Shown here: positions 5,311 through 60,884 of the stretch, piece by piece | Layout: each line of letters opens with the position of its first letter | How positions within the stretch are numbered: position 1 is the stretch's first letter | Source of the DNA: Octopus vulgaris | Lineage: Eukaryota | Length of the DNA stretch: 64,000 nucleotides | Assembly: GCA_951406725.2 (NCBI GenBank) | Contig: OX597834.1 | Span: 15,314,001 to 15,378,000 of the forward strand | Direction: 5' to 3' | Translations under genes and position numbers: made by a program | Notes under the pieces: generated by a model | Databases searched by the model: none | What the model was told of the DNA's origin: nothing | Seen by the model: only the letters and a program-made list of their open reading frames with translations

Positions 5311-5717
5311 TAGGCGTAGGAGTGACTGTGTGGTAAGTAGCTTTCTTACCAACCTAATGGTTCCGGGTTCAGTCCCACTGCGTGACACCTTGGGCAAGTG
5401 TCTTCTACTAAAGCCTCGGGCCGACCAAAGTCTTGCGTGAGTGGATTTGGTAGACGGAAACTGAAAGAAGCCTGTCGTATATATGTATGTATGTGTGTGT
5501 GTTTGGGTGTCTGTGTTTGTCCCCCTAGCATTGCTTGACAACCGATGCTGGTGTGTTTACGTCCCCGTCACTTAGCGGTTCGGCAAAAAGAGACCGATAG
5601 AATAAGTACTGGGCTTACAAAGAATAGGTCCCGGGGTCGATTTGCTCGACTAAAGGCGGTTCTCCAGCATGGCCGCAGTCTGAAACAAGTAAGAGAGTTA
5701 AAGAGTAAGAGTAAAGA

Positions 5718-10344: not shown

Positions 10345-10700
10345 TCTTTTACTAGTTTCAGTCATTTGACTGCGGCCATGCTGGAGCACCGCCTTTAATC
10401 GAACATCTCGACCCCGGGACTTATTCCTTTGTAAGCCCAGTACTTATTCTATCGGTCTCTTTTGCCGAACCGCTAAGTAACGGGGACATAAACACACCAG
10501 CATCGGTTGTCAAGCAATGCTAGGGGGACAAACACACACACAAAACACATATATATATATATATATACATATATACGACGGGCTTCTTTCAGTTTCCGTC
10601 TACCAAATCCACTCACAAGGCTTTTGTCGGCCCGCAGTGGGACTGAACCCGGAACCATGTGGTTGGTAAACAAGCTACTTACCACACAGCCACTCCTGCG

Positions 10701-11693: not shown

Positions 11694-12090
11694 TCTTTTA
11701 CTCTTTTACTTGTTTCAGTCATTTGACTGCGGCCATGCTGGAGCACCGCCTTAAATCGAGCAACTCGACCCCGGGACTTATTCTTTTGTAAACCCAGTAC
11801 TTATTCTATCGGTCTCTTTTAACGAACCGCTAAGTGACGGGGACACAAACACACCAGCATCGGTTGTCAAGCGATTTTGGTGGGACAAACACAGACACAC
11901 AAACATATATATGTATACATATATACGACGGGCTTCTTTCAGTTTCCGTCTACCAAATCCACTCACAAGGCTTTGGTCGGCCCGAGGCTATAGTAGAAGA
12001 CACTTGCCCAAGGTGCCACACAGTGGGACTGAACCCAGAACCATGTGGCTGGTAAACAAGCTACTTACCACACAGCCACTCCTGCGCCTA
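11691..12090 (-). mobile_element. SINE family A, full length
   Basis: Complete head, core and (AAAAGAGT)2 tail. Confidence 0.92.
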
Positions 12091-12587: not shown

Positions 12588-12803
12588 ATTCTTCTCTACT
12601 CTATGCACAAGGCCCGGAATTTGGGGGAGGGGGCCAGTTGATTAGATCGACCGCAGTATGCAACTTGCACTTAATCTATCGACTCCTGAAAGGATGAAAG
12701 GCAAAGTCGACCTCGGCGGAATTTGAACTCAGAACGTAGCGGCAGACTAAATACCGCTAAGCATTTCGTCCGGAGTGCTAACGTTTCTGCCAGCTTGCCG
12801 CCT
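12588..12803 (-). mobile_element. SINE family B, GGCCTTGTGC-tail variant
   Basis: Reverse complement of family B head and core with the second tail type. Confidence 0.85.
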
Positions 12804-12834
12804 TATCAAGCTTTTGAATATTATAGGAACTAAA

Positions 12835-13134
12835 AGGCGGCGAGCTGGCAGAAACGTTAGCACTCTGGACGAAATGCTTAGCGGTATTTCGTCTGCTGCT
12901 ACGTTCTGAGTTCAAATTCCGACGTGGTCGCCTTTGCCTTTCATCCTTTCGGGGTCGATTAAGTAAGTACCAGTTACGCACTGTGGTCGATATAATCGAC
13001 TTAATCCGTTTGTCTGTCCTTGTTTGTCCCCTCTGTGTTTAACCCCTTGTGGGTAGTAAAGAAATAGGTATTTCGTCTGCCGCTACGTTCTGAGTTCAAA
13101 TTCCTCCGAGGTCGTCTTTGCCTTTCATCCTTTC
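12835..13134 (+). mobile_element. SINE family B, Tx1-like tail, followed by a partial second core (13067-13134)
   Basis: GGCGGCGAGCTGGCAGAAACGTTAG head; TTTGTCTGTCCTTGTTTGTCCCCTCT...AAAGAAATA tail ending 13066. Confidence 0.9.
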
Positions 13135-18199: not shown

Positions 18200-18815
18200 C
18201 CGACCACATGGTTCCGGGTTCAGTCCCACTGCGTAGCACCTTGGGCAAGTGTCTTCTGCTATAGCCTCGGGCCGATTGAAGCCTTGTCAGTGTATTTGGT
18301 AGACGAAAACTGAAATAATCCCGTCGTATATACATACATATATGTGTGTGTGTGTGTGTGTTTGTGTGTGTGTTGGTTTGTCACCCACCGCCACTTGACA
18401 ACTGGTATTGGTATGTTTACAGGCGGCAAGCTGGCAGAAACGTTAGCACGCAGGGCGAAATGCGTAGCCGTATTTCGTCTGTCGTTACGTTGTGAGTTCA
18501 AATTCCGCCGAGGTCGACTTTGCCTTTCATCCTTTCGGGGTCGATAAATTAAGTACCAGTTACGCAATGGGGTCAATGTAATCGACTTAATACCTATGTC
18601 TGTCCTTGTTTGTCCCCTCTGTGTTTAGCCCCTTGTGGGTAATAAAGAAATAGGTATTAGTATGTTTACGTCACCGTAACTTAGCGGTTCAGAAAGAGAA
18701 ACCGAATATGTATCAGGCTTTAAAAAATACTGCGATCGTCTCATTCAACTAAAACGCTCTTCAAGGCGCTGCTTCAGTATGGCCGCATTCTAATGATTAA
18801 AACAATTAAAAGACG
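18200..18815 (+). mobile_element. SINE family A, diverged, interrupted by a family B insertion
   Basis: Family A sequence stops at 18420 and resumes at 18653. Confidence 0.85.
18421..18652 (+). mobile_element. SINE family B, Tx1-like tail, 17-bp TSD
   Basis: TSD GGTATT(G/A)GTATGTTTAC at 18404-18420 / 18653-18669. Confidence 0.93.
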
Positions 18816-19487: not shown

Positions 19488-19648
19488 TATATACGACAGG
19501 CTTCTTTCAGTTTCCATCTACCAAATCCACTCACAACGCTTTGGTCGGCCCGAGGCTATAGTAGAAGACACTTGCCCAAGGTGCCACGCAGTGGGACTGA
19601 ACCCGGAACCATGTGGTTGGTAAGCAAGCTACTTACCACACAGCCACT
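19205..19648 (-). mobile_element. SINE family A
   Basis: Near full-length match to the other copies. Confidence 0.9.
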
Positions 19649-23716: not shown

Positions 23717-24089
23717 TATACTAAAGAGGAAAGACGAACGACACTAAATATTCTTGTTGTTTCACGTGTTGGAACGAACAGCATCATTTGGTTTTCCACC
23801 TTTAGAACCTGAGAGATCAGTAATATCAGGTGAAAATGTATAGTTGCTGCTACTATACCGCTTGACAAGGCAAACAGCTTAGTGATAACTTTTTTCATTT
23901 TTATGAGGCCTATTTGAAATGAGAATGAGCGCTGCTGACGGACGCAAATGAAATATCCTTACTATAACCTAGCAAGGTTCCTCTAACCAGCATTTGCATA
24001 TAGGCAAAATAAAATAGAAATAACCTTGTCAATGACATTTTCCTTGTATATCTGCAAACTATATTACGCTATATATTCTTTGCTCGAAA

Positions 24090-24448
24090 GGCGGCGAGCT
24101 GGAGCACCGCCTTTAGTCGAGCAACACGACCCCGGGACTTATTCTTTGGAAGCCCAGTACTTATTCTATCGGTCTCTTTTGCCGAACCGCTAAGTGACTG
24201 GGATGTAAATACACCAGCATCGGTTATCAAGCAATGCTAGGGGGACAAACACAGACACACAAACACACACACACATACATATATACGACAGGCTTCTTTC
24301 AGTTTCCGTCTACCAAATCCACTCACAAGGCATTGGCCGGCCTGAGGCTATAGCAGAAGACACTTGCCCAAGATGCCACGCAGTGGGACTGAACCCGGAA
24401 CCATGTGGTTGGTTAGCAAGCTACTTACTACACAGCCACTCCTGCGCC
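24090..24448 (-). mobile_element. SINE family A with chimeric end and 45-bp flanking duplication
   Basis: Normal tail replaced by GGCGGCGAGCTGG (family B head, opposite strand). Direct repeat at 24045-24089 / 24449-24493. Confidence 0.85.
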
Positions 24449-24789
24449 TGTATATCTGCAAACTATCTTACGCTATATATTCTTTGCTCGAAAATATAAT
24501 GAACGATGAAGGATTACAAGAATATTTTTTTCCTCTATATGATCACACGTTGTGACAAAAGAAAAACTCACCAAACTAATTAATAATCAATATACAAATT
24601 ATTTTACAAATTATCCAATTACTTCAATTAAACTATTTACGTGCGTGTGTTTTTATCGATAACGTAAGCTAGTAAAAAACACATCTTTTCATGAACTGAG
24701 AAAGTTGTGAAACAAATAGACAAGGGATATGTGCAAATAAGAAACAAACTTTAGACCAGGTTCAAGTAGGTTCGGGAGATATTTGAATC

Positions 24790-39364: not shown

Positions 39365-39960
39365 TTGAGAATTAAAATAGCCACCAAGTTCAAAACACAA
39401 CCGGCCACATATATCTTTGTGTGAGAGCACAAAGAAAAGATATATTCTTATTTCTTTATTGCCCACAAGGGGCTAAACACAGAGGGGACAAACAAGGACA
39501 GACAAAGGGATTAAATCGATTACATCGACCCCAGTGCGTAACTGGTACTTAATTTATCGACCCCGAAAGGATGAAAGCCAAAGTCGACCTCGGCGAAGTT
39601 TGAACTCAGAACGTAACGGCAGACGAAATACTGCTAAGCATTTCGCCCGGCGTGCTTACCATTCTGCCAGCTCGACGCTTTAACATTTTAAAGATATATT
39701 CTGACGTGGAAACCGGCTGCCCTTTGGACACGAATGTGGCTAGAAAAATACAAGAGAAAGCGGACATCATTGGACCATTGATAAGGAGTTTGCAAATCCA
39801 GTAACCAAGGTACACTTTCAGTTTCATACCTATTATTATTAGAGCTACAGAATACATACCTACCCATCTGGAGCAGAGTATGACTAAACTTGGGATCTTG
39901 GGGAGAGAATACAAATCCTTAACGTCGAGATGTCTGGGACTATACTAATCTCGAACACCT
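39365..39960 (+). pseudogene. Restriction-like endonuclease domain relic of an R4/NeSL-type non-LTR element, interrupted by a family B SINE
   Basis: KHNRPH (normally HNRPD) before the SINE; after it, GCPLDTNVARKIQEKADIIGPLIRSLQ and FSFIPIII. Confidence 0.65.
39449..39680 (-). mobile_element. SINE family B, Tx1-like tail, ~13-bp TSD
   Basis: TSD AAAGATATATTCT at 39436-39448 / 39690-39702. Confidence 0.9.
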
Positions 39961-40535: not shown

Positions 40536-41219
40536 ATAAAATATATTACAGTCAATAAAATATTTATATTTCGCCAAGGCATAGTGATCCTAATAACCTG
40601 GTTATAGAACTCGATATACCAATGCTTCAGAGCAAACCATTTGTAGAGTACAGAGTGTATTAGTCATATTGTATTATTTATATTATATATACCTATATAC
40701 ACATGTATGTATGTTTGTATGTTTGAAAGCATTTGTTTATGGATACACTTGTGCGTAATCCCTAGTAAAATAAGGATCTACAAATTTATTTAATTCTACA
40801 TTATTACGAATTAATTTCATGCAAGTACAATGTGTAATATTGAAATACAGACGCCAAATTAAATATTGATTCATAGCATATGAATCAATTTATAGACAAA
40901 TCTATTGCCGGAACCTTTCTTAATGGGGTGTTAACAACGTATATATTTGACGCATGCTGGTATAAATTTTGACTGAAATCTGTATTAAATTTTACTTTAA
41001 TTTCATTATAGTTCATAGTGAGTTAAATTAAATGACTTGTCATATTCAAGTATGATATATTCTATGCGCTCAAATCTTCAGTAATTGATATCTAGATTTA
41101 CCTTATTGGTGATGAAGTTTAACAGCAGTCGTTTGACTATTTCAATTGTTATTTAACTAAAGTTTGTAAGAGTATCTTTGTGTTTGTACACACACAGGCA
41201 CGTTCCCATATAGTGACAC

Positions 41220-41267
<48 letters not shown>

Positions 41268-41278
41268 GTAATATATTC

Positions 41279-41313
41279 ACAGGAGTGGCTGTGTGGTAAG
41301 TAGCTTGCTAACC
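41279..41313 (+). mobile_element. SINE family A, 5' stub (A-box region) left of the LINE
   Basis: CAGGAGTGGCTGTGTGGTAAGTAGCTTGCTAACC matches the head of other family A copies (e.g. 48277 onward). Confidence 0.9.
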
Positions 41314-41702
41314 TCACTGACAGAAGAGTGACTTTGCCTACCGTACTACGGTTTGGACGCGTTTTCTTCCCGGTAAGAGTTTTGCTGTGTTGTTAATTGT
41401 TGAATTCCTACTACTGAAAATTTGCCTTTAAACGTTGCTGAACTGTCTTGTTCTCCGGTTTTACCGGGAAATAATTGAATAATTTCTTACCGTTGAACTG
41501 TTAGCCACTGTGGCTTTTTATTTACGTGACTATATATAGTCCTGCCAGACTATTTTCGTGCCCCTCCCCCGAATGGGGGTGGGAATTGGAATTTTTGAAC
41601 TGCTTTTTTGAACTACTTTGGAAGAAAAACTTTCTATAGGTTTCCCAGTTTCGTGGGAAACCAATATTCGTAATTTTTGTGTTGTCTAATTTCAACAGAA
41701 TA

Positions 41703-43105
41703 ATGTCTGTTGAAATTATTCACGAAAGTAGTGCTCTTGAGGAGAGCAATGTTAAAAAATTTTCTGAGGTAGCCGCAGTGGCTACCGAGAAGATTGACAT
41801 CGATGTCAACCAGCTCGTCGAGCTATTTAAAAGAATGCAAGAGGAGGGTGGTGATGTTAAAATATCACCCTCCGCCAGTATCGTGGAGACCGAGAAGCGG
41901 ACCGTAGTGTTTAAAACTTTCTGTCCACAAAGCAGAAGGTTCAAACACTTTGAAAAAAGCACCATCGAGAAATGCCTGTCCCCGATTTGGAAGGACATCG
42001 TGTACGTCGCCAGGGGACGGGCATATGGCACTGTGGATGTCCGCTTCTCGGGGGAAGAAATGGCCCGCGGGCATTCTGTGAACCCCCTAAAAACCAAGGA
42101 GGTGGTACTTTTTCCAAGCTATAGGGGACGCAGGTCGTCCCGGGTCAGGATTGTAGAAGCCCCGCCGGACGTAGATCCGGTAGAGGTAGTGGCCGCCCTG
42201 TTATATAAAAGGGCGGACAAAATAAAAATACTAGAAGTAACATGCTCTACCCCTCGATTTTGGCTCGGGCGTAACATTAATATATTAATTCAAGGAACAG
42301 CGGAGGACCTGCAGCTCCTTCCTGAGAGGGTGCCCGTGGGCGAGAACGTAGCCCTCAGGGTACAGGTCGAAGGCCGAAAACCCACCTGTTACGCCTGCAA
42401 CAAAAAGGGCCACATTCGTGTAGACTGTCCAGACAAGCAAAAGAAACCGCAGACACCAGGCCCCTCAGATAATAAAAAAGTCCCTACCCTTGCAAACACA
42501 CCTACCCCTACAAAAACAAAAAATCCCACTCCTGCTGTTACGGTGCCAACCCCAAAACAGACTGAAGAAAAAACCCAGCCCTCGCACTCACAAACCCCTA
42601 CACTATTAAAACCTCCCACCCCCTAAAAACTGCGGCGCCTACCGAACAAACTATTGCTACCACAGACGATACCATGGAGGTATCAGAGGGGGGATTTACA
42701 CCAGTTCGTAAAAGAATTCGTGCAGCATCCCCGTCCACATCCCCTACAAAAAATAATAAAAACAAAGACACACCACAGACACGGAAAAAAAAATCCCGCT
42801 CAACTGGCCCAGAAAAAGAAGACAAAAAAGAAAATGAACTCATATTAATTGAATTCGACACACAAGACAAATACATAAACGATATTGTGGTTCAGCATCA
42901 GTCAGCAAGACTGTACAACAAATACAAAGATCGAAATAGACACGCGTGGATTGCGGAAACAACGTTCAAACAATTAAAAGACAGACACCCAGACGCCATC
43001 CGGCATATCGCGAACTTGCAGGACTATCTGAAGAAAGAGGAGAAAGAAGGGGCCCACAAACGTGTGGTGAGGTCGGCCCCCACCTCTCCAACGAAATGTA
43101 AGTAG
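41703..43105 (+). CDS. Tx1-type ORF1 (gag-like nucleic-acid chaperone, zinc knuckle), split by one -1 frameshift at C-run 42619-42623
   Basis: ATG at 41703 (MSVEIIHE...), CX2CX4HX4C motif CYACNKKGHIRVDC, then a P/T/K-rich tail. One extra C joins ORF 41679..42626 to the open frame of ORF 42674..43105 (~467 aa). Confidence 0.85.
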
Positions 43106-43121
43106 AACCTTTACTTTTGTA

Positions 43122-46100
43122 ATGGCTTCGCTTAACCTTGGTTGTTTAAATGTGCGTGGTCTGAGTTCGAAGTGGAAGCAGGCTTGTTTCCTCGACGACC
43201 TCAGATCACATGATATACATGTGATGGTTGCTACAGAGACCAAGCTGGACAGCCTACAAACCTTCTCGCCTCTCCTGAATGGCTACGAGAAAATCATGTC
43301 TCCTGGCCAGACCGGAGGGCGAGGGGGCGTAGTGGTACTGATCCGTAAAGACTTGGCTCTACAGACAAGTACAGTCTATGTAGACCCAGAAGGTGGGCTG
43401 GTCGTCCTTGATGTGACATACAGCAGTAAGGCCTTCAGGTTAATCGGACTCTATGCACCTTGTGCTAGAGGTTTCCAAACTGATTTTTATCGGCGCCTAG
43501 AGGGCTTTCTCGTGACGTCGAAGACTTTAGTGATATTAGGGGACTTTAATGCTATCGTTGACGTACACATCGATAGCGTTGGCTCGATCTATAGGAAAGT
43601 GAACTCACGTCTCGTGGATCTGCTTAAGCGGTTTCAGCTAGCAGATCGTTACAGACTTGACCATCCGAACGTCCCAGAGTGGACCTGGATGAGTGGCGAC
43701 GGAAGGTTCAAGTCTTATCTAGACAGGATAGTGATAAGAACTAGAGATAAGTCTAGTTTCAGTTGTCCACAGCTCGTCCAGGTGCCCTATACTGACCATA
43801 GAATGGTCACGTGTAGACTGGACATAGATAGCACACTTAAGATAGGAACCGGCTACTGGAAGCTGAACAAGTCTATTTTGACACGCGAGGCATACCGTAG
43901 CCGGATTAAGGTGTTAGTGCAGAGGGCGTTAACCGGAGCCGTGGTTAATAACCGGTGGTGGTTCACCCTCAAAAGAGCCATTCGATTCGAGTCCATTAGA
44001 TTTAGTAAACAACTAAGACTAGATAGGGCTAGAATAGAAGGGCAACTAGTTAAGAACTTAGAGGAGGCGTTGAGGTTGGGCTCTGCATCTCACATTTTAG
44101 CGGCGAGAACGGCATTAGACCGTCACCTCAAAACCAAACATGAGGGATGTAGAGTCCGGGCTAAAGTACGAGCATTGGGCCGTGAGGGAATTAATGTTGC
44201 CGGATGGGCCCGTACGATAGAAACACAGCGTGGAAACGATGCCACAATTGGGTCTCTTGTTGATGAAAACGGATGCACGATCAAGAAGCGGGACGAGATG
44301 TGTGAGGCACTCCACAAGCACTTCGCCGAGTTGTTCGGGAGGTGCGGGACGCTGGATCATGGTGAGGCCCTTAGGGACTTCCTGTCTGGTGGCCCGCGCC
44401 TCTCGACACGAGAGGCTGAGTGCTGTGAAGGGCCAATCACAGCCGAGGAAGTAATCGAGGTGTTGGGCAAGTGCCCCGGGGAGAAGTCGCCGGGTCTCGA
44501 TGGTCTGCCCTATGAATTTTATAGAAGTATGCCAAACTTGTTCGGGCACCTGCTGGCTAGCGTCTACGCCAACTGGCAGCAGAATGGGAGAATTCCCAAG
44601 TCTGCGAGCCGGGGGGCGGTGACCTTGATCAGGAAGGACCCGAACAAGGGGGACGAGATAGGGAACTTCAGGCCCATAACTCTGTTAAACACAGAGTTAA
44701 AGATTCTGGCCAAGGTGCTAGCAAAAAGGTTGGCGCGGGTCGTGGACAAACTTGTCGGGGAAGCGCAAACGTGCGCTATCCCCGGCAGAACGATCCACGA
44801 CAATCTCCACCTTATACGCTACTCCTTAGAGAGGGTGGGGAAGCTTTCTGGCGCAGGGGGAGCACTGGTACATTTAGACCAGTCCAAAGCATTTGATAGG
44901 GTCGACCATCGGTACCTGGCGGCGGTCCTCGGAGAGGCTGGCCTAGGCCCGACCTTTCGAGGTTGGATCGCTGCTTTGTATAGCGACATCGAGTCTGTAG
45001 TCAAGGTGAACGGTTCCTTTTCGAAGCCGTTCAGGATCGAGCGTTCAGTTCGTCAAGGGTGTCCCCTGTCCTCGCTCCTATACGTATTGGCTCTTGAGCC
45101 TTTGCTGCGGAAGTTGGAGGCACTAGGGGGCGCGCCGCATGATCTATGGTGTGGAAGAGGAGCTACGGCGTATGCGGATGACACCTCCATCATCGTGGCA
45201 GACGAAGGCCAGCTTCCAGTGGTGGAAGAGGCCATAAAAAGCTACGAGGCGGTGGCAGGAGCAAAGGTTAACAAGGACAAGTCGGTCGGTTTGCAACTCG
45301 GCACCTGGAGGGGCAAGCCGATGCCGTCCAATAACGTCGTAGGGCGTTGGACGGAAGGTCCTGTTAAGCTGCTCGGAGTCTGGTTCGGGCCAGACCTCCA
45401 GATTGAGAAAAATTGGAGTGAGGTGGCCAACAAGGTGACCGCTCTAACCCAGACCTGGTCTGGGCGGGCGTTATCCCTGCTAGGGAAGGCGGAGGTGGTG
45501 CAGATGTTTATAGCATCAGTAATCACCTACCGTCTGACCGTGGTGCCTTGCCCCGATTTGTGGCTGAACAAGTTGGAGAGAATCCTTTTCCGATTTTTGT
45601 GGAAAGGAGGAAAGCCACTTGTAAAGCGCTCTGTCTGCTGCCAGAAACCGCTAAAGGGTGGGCTAGGGATGCCTTGGCTGAGGATGCGAAAACTCGCGTT
45701 AAGGTTGAGGCACCTCTGGCTTTACCTGGATGGAGAGCAGGTGTGGTCGCCGCACGTCCGGTTCTACCTTCCCCAGTTAACATCCCTAACGGACATCGGT
45801 GCATGGATCAAGCGGAGACCTAAACTGAGTGAATGGCATTTGGAGTGCCGTCAGGCGCTCCAGCTACTATCTCGGGTGGGCAACGCCGGCAACAGGAGTT
45901 CCACCACGGATTTCTATAGCGGGTTAGTGGAGATTAAGTCCGAAGACGCCTTGGGGAGACCCTGGGCTACGATGAAAATCAGTTGATCAACCTGTTCCGG
46001 AGGACGTTCGGGCCGGGGTATCTGGATAATTACCAGAAATCCCTAGCCTGGCAGTGTTTCCGTGCGGCTTTACCTGTTCGCGACAAGCTGTCAAGGCACG

Positions 46101-46522
46101 GTAGTGCCGTCTCGCCGACATGCCCGCGATGTGAGCAGGATAGGGAGACCGTCTTGCACGCATTCGTGGAGTGTCCGGAGTTATCGGGACTTATAGCTTT
46201 TGTAGAACAACTGTTGTCAGTGATGGGAAGAGTACAGCTATCAGCTGAGTCTATCATCGAGATTGTGCCGCCCCCTTTCCTTAACAGGGAAAGAAAGGCT
46301 TGTTTTTTCTGTGTAGTAGCCATACTGAAAGAAACAGTATGGAAGACGCGTACGAAAGGTATAGTGACAGGCACCTTTGTCTCCGGCCAGGGGTTGATTA
46401 ACTTTTTTAGTTACCACCTCAGTAGCAAAATCAGGCTGGAGAAGAGGTGTCTGTCACGAGATATGTTTGTGAAAAGATGGAAGCCTGTGGCATACAAGAT
46501 GGGTATGTTTGGCACCAGGTAA
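43122..46522 (+). CDS. Tx1-type ORF2 (APE endonuclease, reverse transcriptase, C-terminal zinc finger), split by one -1 frameshift at G-run 45953-45956
   Basis: EN motifs NVRGL, ETK, GDFNA, LDRI, TDH. RT motifs KSPGLDG, FRPITLLN, LDQSKAFDRV, VRQGCPLS, YADD. CPRC-x8-H-x4-C in ORF 45983..46522. One extra G gives ~1133 aa. Confidence 0.93.
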
Positions 46523-46750
46523 GTGTGACCGGATCAGAAAGTAAAGGTTCTACCCGGATGGCTGGGTGTCCGTCCTTCGACATGATCATTAATATTTTTA
46601 AACATTGCCTTCGTAAAATTCATTGTTTATAATCTTATCCGTAATTTCATTCGAAAATTGTAACTGTGTTAAGCTACTTCACCCTTTATATTTGTCTGTC
46701 CTTGTTTGTCCCCTCTTTGTAAATGCCTAAATGGCAAATTATATGAAATA

Positions 46751-47122
46751 AAGTAGCTTGTTTACCAACCACATGGTTCCGGGTTCAGTCCTACTGCGTG
46801 GCACCTTGGGCAAGTGTCTTCTACTATAGCCTCGGGCCGACCAAAGCCTTGTGAGTGGATTTGGTAGACGGAAACTGAAAGAAGCCCGTCGTATATATGT
46901 ATATATATGTATGTGCGTGTATGTTTGTGTGTCTGTGTTTGTCCCCCAACATCGCTTGACACCGTCACATAGCGGTTCGGCAAACCAGACCGATAGAATA
47001 AGTACTGGGCTTACAAAGAATAAGTCCCGGGGTCGAGTTGCTCGATTAAAGGCGGTGCACCAGCATGGCCGCAGTCAAAATGACTGAAACAAGTAAAAAG
47101 AAAAAAAGAGAAAAGAAAAGAG
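46751..47122 (+). mobile_element. SINE family A, remainder (B-box, core, internal microsatellite, tail) right of the LINE
   Basis: Resumes the family A sequence where the 5' stub stops: GGTTCAGTCC B-box, ACCTTGGGCAAGTG, ...GACTGAAACAAGTAAAAAG tail. Confidence 0.93.
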
Positions 47123-47803: not shown

Positions 47804-48276
47804 TACATACAGACACACATACATACAGACACACACATACATACATACATATATATTTACATACATACACATACATACATACATACATACATACACATAC
47901 ATACATATATACACTGGACCACTGGAAAATATAACACATTGCCTAAATACTAATCTTGAGAAAGTACTACACACACACATATACACACACGCACATACAT
48001 GTATATGATGGCCTCTCCTGCTACATAACCTGCACAAATGATTTGTTTATAGTGAACAAATCTATCTGCTGTTCACTCCTTCTATCAAATCGATGTTGCC
48101 TGAACAGGTGCGCGTTATACCATAAGTCAGGTGTCGAAGTAATCGCAGAGGAACGGGAAACGAAGGGTTTTCCTCAAAAACACAAAGCACTACCCGGTCT
48201 AGAAACTGAAACCACGATCTCGCGATCCTAAGTGCAAAACACTAGCCATTAAGCTATACATCCTATATATATATAT

Positions 48277-48868
48277 AGGTGCAGGAGTGGCTGTGTGGTA
48301 AGTAGCTTGCTTACCAACCACATGGTTCCGAGTTCATTCCTACTGCATGGCATCTTGGGCAAGTGTCTTCTACTATAGCCTCGGACCGACCAAAGCCTTG
48401 TGAGTGGATTTGGTAGACTGAACCTGAAAAAAGCCCGTCATATATATGTATATGTATGTGTATCTATGTGTATATGTTTGTGTGTCTGTGTTTGTCCGTC
48501 CCCCAACATCGATTGACAGCCGATGCTGGTGTGTTTACATCCCCATAACTTAGCGGTTCGGCAAAAGGGACCGTTCGAATAAGTACCAGGCTTACAAAGA
48601 ATAAGTCCTGGGGTCGATTTAATCGACTAAAGGCGATGCTCCATACATACATACATACATACATACACATACATACATACACATACATACATACATACAT
48701 ACATACACATACATACATACACACGTACACACATACATACATACATACATACATACATACATACACATACAAACATACACATACATACATACACACAGAC
48801 ACACACATACATACATACATACACATACCGCTGTCAAATGACTGAAACAAATAAAAGAGAAAGAGAGA
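48277..48868 (+). mobile_element. SINE family A with ~185 bp (CATA/CA)n expansion in the tail region
   Basis: Complete head and core; 3' block split at 48642-48827. Confidence 0.88.
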
Positions 48869-59544: not shown

Positions 59545-59975
59545 GAGTGAGAGAGCAGTGCATATCATCGAAGTGACACTTGGATACGAATACCCGAAGC
59601 CTGATATACCCATCATGGCTACCCGTCTGATAAGGGTGCACCAGGGATATGCATCACAAACATATTACCCGATATGGCGGCCTTATATCGAGATAAACAG
59701 TGCATGACCTTGCAGGTGGAGCAAAGTTAGAATTTTCTTCAGATTGAGTAGCCCATCCGACTCAAAATATTTCTCAATGAGGGTTCTATTAAGGATGTTG
59801 AACGAAACACCTATGCCTCGAGACATGAATTATTCAAACCCCAAAGAATTCTTCTCAACGAGTAGGATTATTGCATCTCCTACTCATGATCAGAGATGTA
59901 GATATCGTTATCCAATAAGGGACATGCTCAACAGGGTAAGGCCAAGCAACTGAGCAAATCTGTGGCGAGATTGAG
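59544..59975 (-). mobile_element. ~420 bp interspersed repeat, second copy
   Basis: Colinear with 214-632 (AAGTGACACT, CTGATAAG, GATCAGAGATG, GCAAATCTGTGG). Confidence 0.75.
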
Positions 59976-59977
59976 CC

Positions 59978-60335
59978 ATCACCGTTTCTTCGAAGCGAAA
60001 CACGAAGATTGCGTTGTTAGAATTAAGGCCCATGTGCTCACACTGGAAGGAACTAAAGCTGTCCAATGGACCCCAACGGTGCGGACGCGACTCGGAAACA
60101 AAACCGCAATCAGGTCTTTGACGGATAGGGATGGGCGCGAGCTACGCGGCCCCGAGCAGATGTGTGTGGCTTTTCTACAGCACTTTGCGCCGCTCTTTGG
60201 AGAGGGCGACGGGTCGACGACGGTTCTTGGAATTTAGAGCTCGTAACTGGACTGCACATCTTGCTGCGGTTGTCCACACCTGATGCGAGGATATGTGAAA
60301 GGTCGATAACAGGCGATGAAATTTCCGGGCGATGA
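59978..60335 (+). pseudogene. Relic of a second, diverged Tx1-family ORF2
   Basis: KHEDCVVRIKA..EG..W..GNKTAIRSLTD..G..MC.AF..HFAPLFG and RLSTPDARICERSITGDE align with ORF2 KHEGCRVRAK..EG..W..GNDATIGSLVD..G..MCEAL..HFAELFG..RLSTREAECCEGPITAEE. Confidence 0.85.
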
Positions 60336-60884
60336 CCGATTGTACATGTTGCAGATCGCCCGGTTTGGATGGTCAGCAAAGGAGGCGACTTTTCCCGTAC
60401 TGCTGTCACGACTCCTGTCCAAGCCGCCTCATCAGCCACTAATTGTGTTCTTCATACTTATAGAGAACGTGAGAATAATTACTGAAATAATATGATAGGT
60501 AATTTTGCAGTTAAATGCAATGGCGGTTTCTCCTCTTTTTATATTTTCTTTCCTATTAATAGTACACGCGACCGAGATCGTTGATATATCATTGTGTATG
60601 ATGTTTTCGTTGTTATTGTTGATTTTATTGATGATGATGGTGATAGTGGTGATGCAGCTGGCGGGGCTGTTGTTACAGTAGGAAGTCGTTCAGAGAGGCA
60701 TGGTAATGAAGCTGCTGTCCGTGTTGTTAGTAATGCACTTACACTCCTCAATGTTTCTTGAAGTGTTACTGATATTTAGATTTTGCAGCTGCTAACGATG
60801 TGATTTGCGCGTATGTGTCTACAGTATTGTGCTTATATATATAGATAGATAGATAGATATAGATATAGATAGATATATAGATAT

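Follow-up and report, generated by a model that had tools for sequence, protein, structure and literature searches.

The locus described here raises the question why a LINE that looks young is bracketed by two 16-bp repeats that are not identical, and whether their difference tells where the inserted RNA came from. The LINE lies in a 64-kb stretch of Octopus vulgaris DNA (the window), inside a copy of SINE A, which we take to be an octopus family; the head of this copy is found on the left of the LINE and the remainder on the right, in register. An initial annotation of the window had pointed to the unequal repeats and proposed two mechanisms for them, either of which would imply recurrent insertion at this exact site.

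Structure of the LINE and of its host SINE

The locus comprises the following features, all on the plus strand:
41276..41297 (+), head stub of the host SINE A, 5' of the left repeat, with an A-box-like motif inside
41298..41313 (+), left 16-bp repeat AAGTAGCTTGCTAACC, CTAACC type with C11 and A13, same as the SINE A copy at 24411-24426
41314..46750 (+), full-length L1/Tx1-type non-LTR retrotransposon, 5,437 bp, without poly(A), 3' end GAAATA
41703..43105 (+), ORF1 with a zinc knuckle and one frameshift at about 42619-42629
43122..46522 (+), ORF2 with APE endonuclease, reverse transcriptase, and zf-RVT, and one frameshift at about 45953-45956
46691..46750 (+), 3' tail of the LINE, common to SINE B
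46747..46752 (+), AATAAA across the 3' junction, made of four LINE-end bases and the first two of the right repeat
46751..46766 (+), right 16-bp repeat AAGTAGCTTGTTTACC, TTTACC type with T11 and T13, same as the copies at 10665-10680 and 12051-12066
46767..47122 (+), rest of the host SINE A (B-box-like motif, body, microsatellite, and tail), with G47037, T47046, and a deletion of about 30 bp

A blastn search of the LINE against the window returned 41314-46750 as its sole full copy. Pfam domains Exo_endo_phos, RVT_1, and zf-RVT were identified in ORF2 and zf-CCHC in ORF1, while the best solved relative of ORF2 was LINE-1 ORF2p (E 6e-67), with R2 at 4e-20. By the domain plan of ORF2 and the upstream ORF1, the element is an L1/Tx1-type non-LTR retrotransposon, and the zinc knuckle of ORF1 is presumably consistent with Tx1; no named Tx1 reference was present among the database protein matches of the LINE, the clade label resting on domains. 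The closest database proteins showed 63-71% identity, and the one named protein among the best 120 matches was that of the cuttlefish Acanthosepion pharaonis (50% identity). The ORFs had initially been described as free of in-frame stops, and indeed 0 stops were found in 1,589 codons of ORF1 and ORF2, each read in its own frame(s), but each ORF carries a 1-bp frameshift. Both frameshifts are 1-base losses located in homopolymer runs and may be either genuine or sequencing errors, single-base homopolymer losses being a typical error of long-read consensus sequences. With 3.4% of substitutions in the real codons giving a stop, the uninterrupted 1,589 codons set the neutral divergence of the LINE at 1.85% or less (95% upper bound). 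Broken conserved residues were rejected as a measure of its age: 17 of 188 near-invariant columns were affected, but so were 22 of 191 in the nearest relative, many of them identical, which marks them as lineage traits.

The stub at 41276..41297 begins with TTCAC, where most SINE A copies have GGCGC. The A-box and B-box labels were assigned by eye, following what we take to be the consensus. A tRNA origin of SINE A was looked for with ARAGORN, which gave 0 genes, and with Rfam, which gave no tRNA match for the copy at 48260-48420, the box-like motifs being those seen by eye. The heads of the SINE A copies at 5335, 10680, 12066, 48300, and 3443 lie mostly directly behind (TA)n and several tails run into (TA)n, which suggests a preference of SINE A for TA microsatellites. 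The CTAACC-type copy at 24045-24493 (minus strand) is truncated at its 3' end, where 16 nt from the head of SINE B follow in inverted orientation, the join falling in a short stretch common to both. Around this copy lies a direct repeat of 45 bp, which contains one mismatch and greatly exceeds the other duplications in length. To the right of the host SINE A, the outer flank from about 47133 resembles what is presumably a Mariner terminal inverted repeat.

The two repeats and the SINE A variants

As initially annotated, the repeats at 41298-41313 and 46751-46766 differ by two mismatches in 16 bp, namely C/T at position 11 and A/T at position 13. They were compared with 12 other SINE A copies aligned in register; the window contains 13 copies with the 16-mer region in 64 kb, and the SINE A pattern was matched 8 times at up to 3 mismatches, 0 matches being expected from shuffles. 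The exact left 16-mer was present in 1 of the 12 copies (24411-24426, minus strand), the exact right 16-mer in 2 (10665-10680 and 12051-12066), and the majority CTTACC form in another 2 (19619-19634 and 48300-48315). Over the 14 aligned rows, position 11 was C in 10, T in 3, and A in 1, while position 13 was T in 11 and A in 3. The motifs GCTAACC, GTTTACC, and GCTTACC were thus present in the SINE A copies named in the initial annotation, which had placed them correctly to within 1-5 bases. Its statement that each repeat matches a different SINE A variant stands insofar as exact twins exist, but it is weaker than it appears, since the left repeat has a single twin and random substitutions in SINE A reproduce a known variant at a frequency of 11.6% when the 7 young copies are considered and 31.9% when all 12 are.

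The probability of at least two substitutions in the 32 duplicated bases was 0.020-0.027 from the integrity of the ORFs, and 0.005-0.03 with the frameshifts counted as real. As a control we used five older duplications in the window, those of four SINE B copies and the 45-bp repeat round a SINE A copy. Over 108 bp in all they contain 2 mismatches, located in two different duplications of the five, the SINE B copies being mutually 8-13% different; at this rate, at least two mismatches in 16 have P = 0.035, whereas the excess in the LINE repeats over the controls is not significant (Fisher P 0.08), the control set being biased to good matches, with a fifth full-tail SINE B copy, which has no duplication, excluded. 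That both changes match seen variants by chance adds a further factor of 0.013-0.10 (0.12-0.32 per change), and two differences in the 16-mer are found in 9 of 21 pairs of unrelated young SINE A copies. Two chance substitutions in the LINE repeats are therefore unlikely, for a case that was chosen after the fact, and the LINE does look young rather than old (divergence at most 1.85%, P of two changes about 0.02-0.03).

Which of the repeats is foreign can be judged from more distant markers, located 270-290 bp downstream of the right repeat and linked to its T. Among the 7 SINE A copies that retain head and tail, T11 and T47046 are found together in exactly 3 (1/35 by chance), and each of the copies with T11 is among the 4 carrying G47037. 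Since T11 travels with T47046 and G47037, it is most likely an inherited subfamily state and the target read TTTACC, in which case it is the left repeat that departs from it at both positions, in one instance with a return to the base of the family majority. In target-primed reverse transcription, the right repeat is made from the primer strand and is expected to equal the target. Judging by these sequence comparisons, the right repeat is most likely derived from the target and the left one foreign. The left stub differs from other copies more than the right part does (4/38 vs 10/304, hand-set counts from the alignment), the P value of this excess ranging from 0.003 to 0.15 and being 0.15 when three changes right at the 5' terminus are disregarded. 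The mosaic nature of SINE A copies, as in the one at 24426, which has markers in common with those at 5335 and 10680, weakens the linkage argument. Nevertheless, the proposal that the two repeats derive from different SINE copies is supported, in that chance is an unlikely source of the differences and subfamily markers accompany the right T. The left duplication departs from the local target at 2 of 16 positions, as in R2-like carry-over. It is possible that the left repeat arose by a 4-bp slippage deletion (CT + AACC), although the C/T difference would still need explaining. A 10-bp duplication followed by a chance resemblance at the start of the LINE was rejected, because the six bases that follow match a genuine SINE variant and duplications of 16-17 bp are usual.

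SINE B copies with the LINE tail and the search for a second junction

The last 60 bases of the LINE were aligned with the SINE B copy ending at 39449 and 46 of 60 aligned columns were identical (score 58, against at most 30 in 2,000 shuffles). The two elements have the GAAATA end in common and neither has poly(A). The blastn search of the LINE against the window gave five tail matches of 28-30 nt, all to SINE B, in addition to one self-hairpin. The SINE B copies with this shared tail end at the following positions:
13066, 18652, and 23716 (+)
28955 and 39449 (-)

Duplications of 17, 16, 17, and 13 bp were identified in 4 of these 5 full-tail copies, all at unrelated sites and 0 of 4 at the SINE A site. 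Going by the SINE-LINE tail rule (PMC3747384), SINE B was probably mobilized by the LINE's family or a relative; tail-recognizing partnerships of this kind are said there to be rare in L1-clade elements. With SINE B duplications of 13-17 bp, 16 bp corresponds to the usual stagger of the machinery, so that the length of the LINE duplication (16 bp) is typical of it. Since the SINE B copies lie at unrelated sites, insertion by a related machinery does not strictly require the SINE A site, and this is the main result against the inference of recurrent insertion drawn in the initial annotation.

Two loci with SINE B sequence show additional features. The copy at 18423-18652, with a 17-bp duplication, is inserted within an old SINE A (18200-18811) whose head is missing as far as about position 15-17 of the 16-mer, and no LINE coding remnant was found upstream of this headless copy. 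At 12640-13134, a head-to-head inverted pair of SINE B-like sequences is directly followed by a partial copy, and no duplication was found.

The blastn search revealed no second LINE junction in the 64-kb window, leaving one junction pair in all. A decayed fragment from the interior of a related LINE subfamily lies at 59965-60400, or more narrowly at 59965-60201. Over 79 residues it has 58% amino-acid identity to the nearest protein in the database, and it has no SINE A flanks. A scan of GTDB with ORF2 yielded 14 pattern matches, 0 of which were confirmed, and one with the SINE head yielded 0.

Possible origin of the left repeat and comparison with known systems

The reading that we favor, with an about even chance, is that the RNA of the LINE brought SINE sequence from a donor locus and thereby replaced the left repeat of the target, a reading drawn by analogy from one locus; the weights given here to this and to the other readings combine computed likelihoods with judged priors. 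It starts from the observed anatomy, junctions, variant linkage, and 13-17-bp duplications of SINE B, and it may entail a site preference of the LINE. A T-type SINE A copy would have been nicked just after its A-box, and target-primed reverse transcription would have placed the LINE there with the usual 16-bp stagger. As donor we envisage a LINE occupying the equivalent position in a different SINE A copy, of the CTAACC type; the RNA would have started upstream of this LINE, hence the cDNA would have ended in donor SINE sequence. This end may have annealed to the 16-nt overhang of the target with two mismatches, which would then have been trimmed or repaired in favor of the cDNA, giving a right repeat equal to the target and a left repeat equal to the donor.

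At the 3' end, the AATAAA completed by the right repeat is the only AATAAA at the LINE end, and LINE transcripts would plausibly end in SINE sequence, the signal being target-completed; alternatively, the two A after the LINE end could be a residual tail. In the 5' region of the LINE, no ribozyme was matched by Rfam in 41150-41800, a custom ribozyme descriptor, run with no positive control, gave 0 matches in 41260-41720 and 0 in 40 shuffles, and no unusual folding was detected (z -0.46 to 0.82). Initiator-like hexamers occur at 41276-41281, the altered start of the stub, and at 41313-41318, the start of the LINE (background 0.011 per nt); going by what we take to be the Initiator consensus, they could mark two transcription starts.

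The same pattern of repeats would be predicted for a hybrid of two LINE copies residing at the same SINE A position in different loci, produced by ectopic recombination, gene conversion, an assembly misjoin, or polishing with reads of the other copy. The homopolymer frameshifts indicate that the sequence may contain errors, which favors an artifact of this kind, but an extra event is needed after two insertions, and we consider such a hybrid rather unlikely. A duplication common to both outer flanks of the SINE A would mean one original locus; a possible one, ATATGTA(A)TATAT, scored 9 in these TA-rich flanks, with scores of 9-10 reached in 5 of 10 other copies. Improbable in our judgment is an exact 16-bp duplication at a non-specific site that later acquired two point mutations or sequence errors, its match to SINE A variants being coincidental. 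Such a history agrees with the 16-17 bp at unrelated sites that are the norm for SINE B (3 of 4 copies with a duplication), with the mismatch in 2 of 5 control duplications, with the divergence of up to 1.85% that the ORFs allow, and with the fact that the finding was singled out after the fact from a large scan. However, two changes have a P of about 0.02-0.035, to be multiplied by 0.013-0.10 for both matching seen variants, and the linkage of T11 (1/35) must be due to chance too.

Equally improbable, in our view, are two routes that involve no second LINE, i.e., gene conversion of one flank by another SINE A copy, or a jump of the reverse transcriptase from LINE RNA to SINE A RNA, the head of which then anneals to the target. 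SINE A is dense and mosaic in the window, and the Tx1-mobilized SINEU-2 is reported to gain small-RNA heads of a different subfamily repeatedly, by template switch (PMC4494074). Conversion, however, has only about 38 bp of homology in the left stub, and on the right its tract must start at most 10 bp from the junction, whereas a template jump must land in register at exactly the typical 16-bp length of the machinery. Recurrent insertion at this position, to which carry-over and same-site exchange or chimera jointly lead, thus appears fairly probable to us. The initial annotation had held that either of its two mechanisms would imply it; this is true of those two but not of SINE-only conversion, a template jump, mutation, or sequence error, and the possibility of an assembly or polishing chimera had been missed.

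Returning to carry-over of donor sequence, we put forward as a tentative extension, itself somewhat unlikely, that the LINE family homes among SINE A copies, each insertion lying just after the A-box and each transcript carrying SINE sequence at both ends, the pairing of which would steer insertion to the same nucleotide and paste in the donor variant. Targeting by the carried-over flank, and not by a specific endonuclease, would explain why tail-sharing SINE B copies land anywhere. If such homing were true, each LINE insertion would split the promoter boxes of a SINE and, the target being a dispersed polymorphic SINE, its left repeat would record the donor and serve as a natural barcode for parent and daughter LINE copies. 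It would also provide a test of second-strand priming in L1/Tx1 elements, which homogeneous rDNA targets cannot show, and would reveal a route to site preference via flank carry-over. If it were false, the LINE in SINE A would be an ordinary nested insertion.

For Octopus vulgaris, 13 recently active families of L1-Tx1 LINEs have been described, with 421 insertions and 2,288,644 bp (PMC13282606); their average of about 5.4 kb equals the length of the LINE at 41314-46750, the likeness being one of length, and the part of that paper used here reports no target sites or junctions. No report of a LINE targeting a SINE head was found in the literature searched, which covered few subscription papers and extended neither to Repbase nor to the supplementary Tx1 targets of PMC4494074, where a SINE could be listed. 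Target-preferring Tx1 families share with the LINE the domain plan and a target that is a multicopy repeat or derives from a small RNA: Xenopus Tx1 is found in Tx1D, Keno in U2 genes, and crocodilian Tx1-Mar in Mariner-N4, and some of these families carry U1/U2 heads and mobilize SINEs (PMC4494074). A Tx1 family is termed target-specific there when >20% of its copies have the same flanking sequence. Unlike the LINE, which is likened to them by domain plan and one junction, these families have no SINE-head target in the part of their description consulted (PMC4494074).

Drosophila R1 of the ancestral and melanogaster types is likewise APE-type, with a duplication of about 14 bp, and its transcripts with flanking target anneal at the 3' end and, in the melanogaster type, at the 5' end as well (PMC2718515). 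In melanogaster-type R1, the RNA includes upstream 28S, through which it anneals to the target; downstream target is frequently present in R1 RNAs as well (PMC2718515) and is required by R1Bm, as cited in PMC7265360. In contrast to the LINE, the target of R1 is rDNA, and the annealing of the melanogaster type leads to a 9-bp deletion and no mismatched duplication (PMC2718515). R2 differs from the LINE in having a restriction-like endonuclease, 28S rDNA as its target, and an HDV-like ribozyme (PMC3774820). The LINE is APE-type and lies in a SINE, the searches for a ribozyme gave no match, and the comparison draws on one junction. Both RNA-propagated imperfect duplications and the targeting of other repeats by Tx1 families are already in print. 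The asymmetry of the LINE repeats is real and probably not a product of chance, in a single nested insertion. The closest parallel to this asymmetry is that of R2 in earwig and sow bug (Eickbush, Burke, Eickbush 2013, PMC3774820), which has an apparent, substituted target duplication at its 5' end, as the LINE does: in the earwig, every junction carries a 22-bp duplication of downstream 28S with substitutions, explained by its inclusion in the RNA template, and in R2 this duplication is fixed and passed on via RNA that starts in the upstream target.
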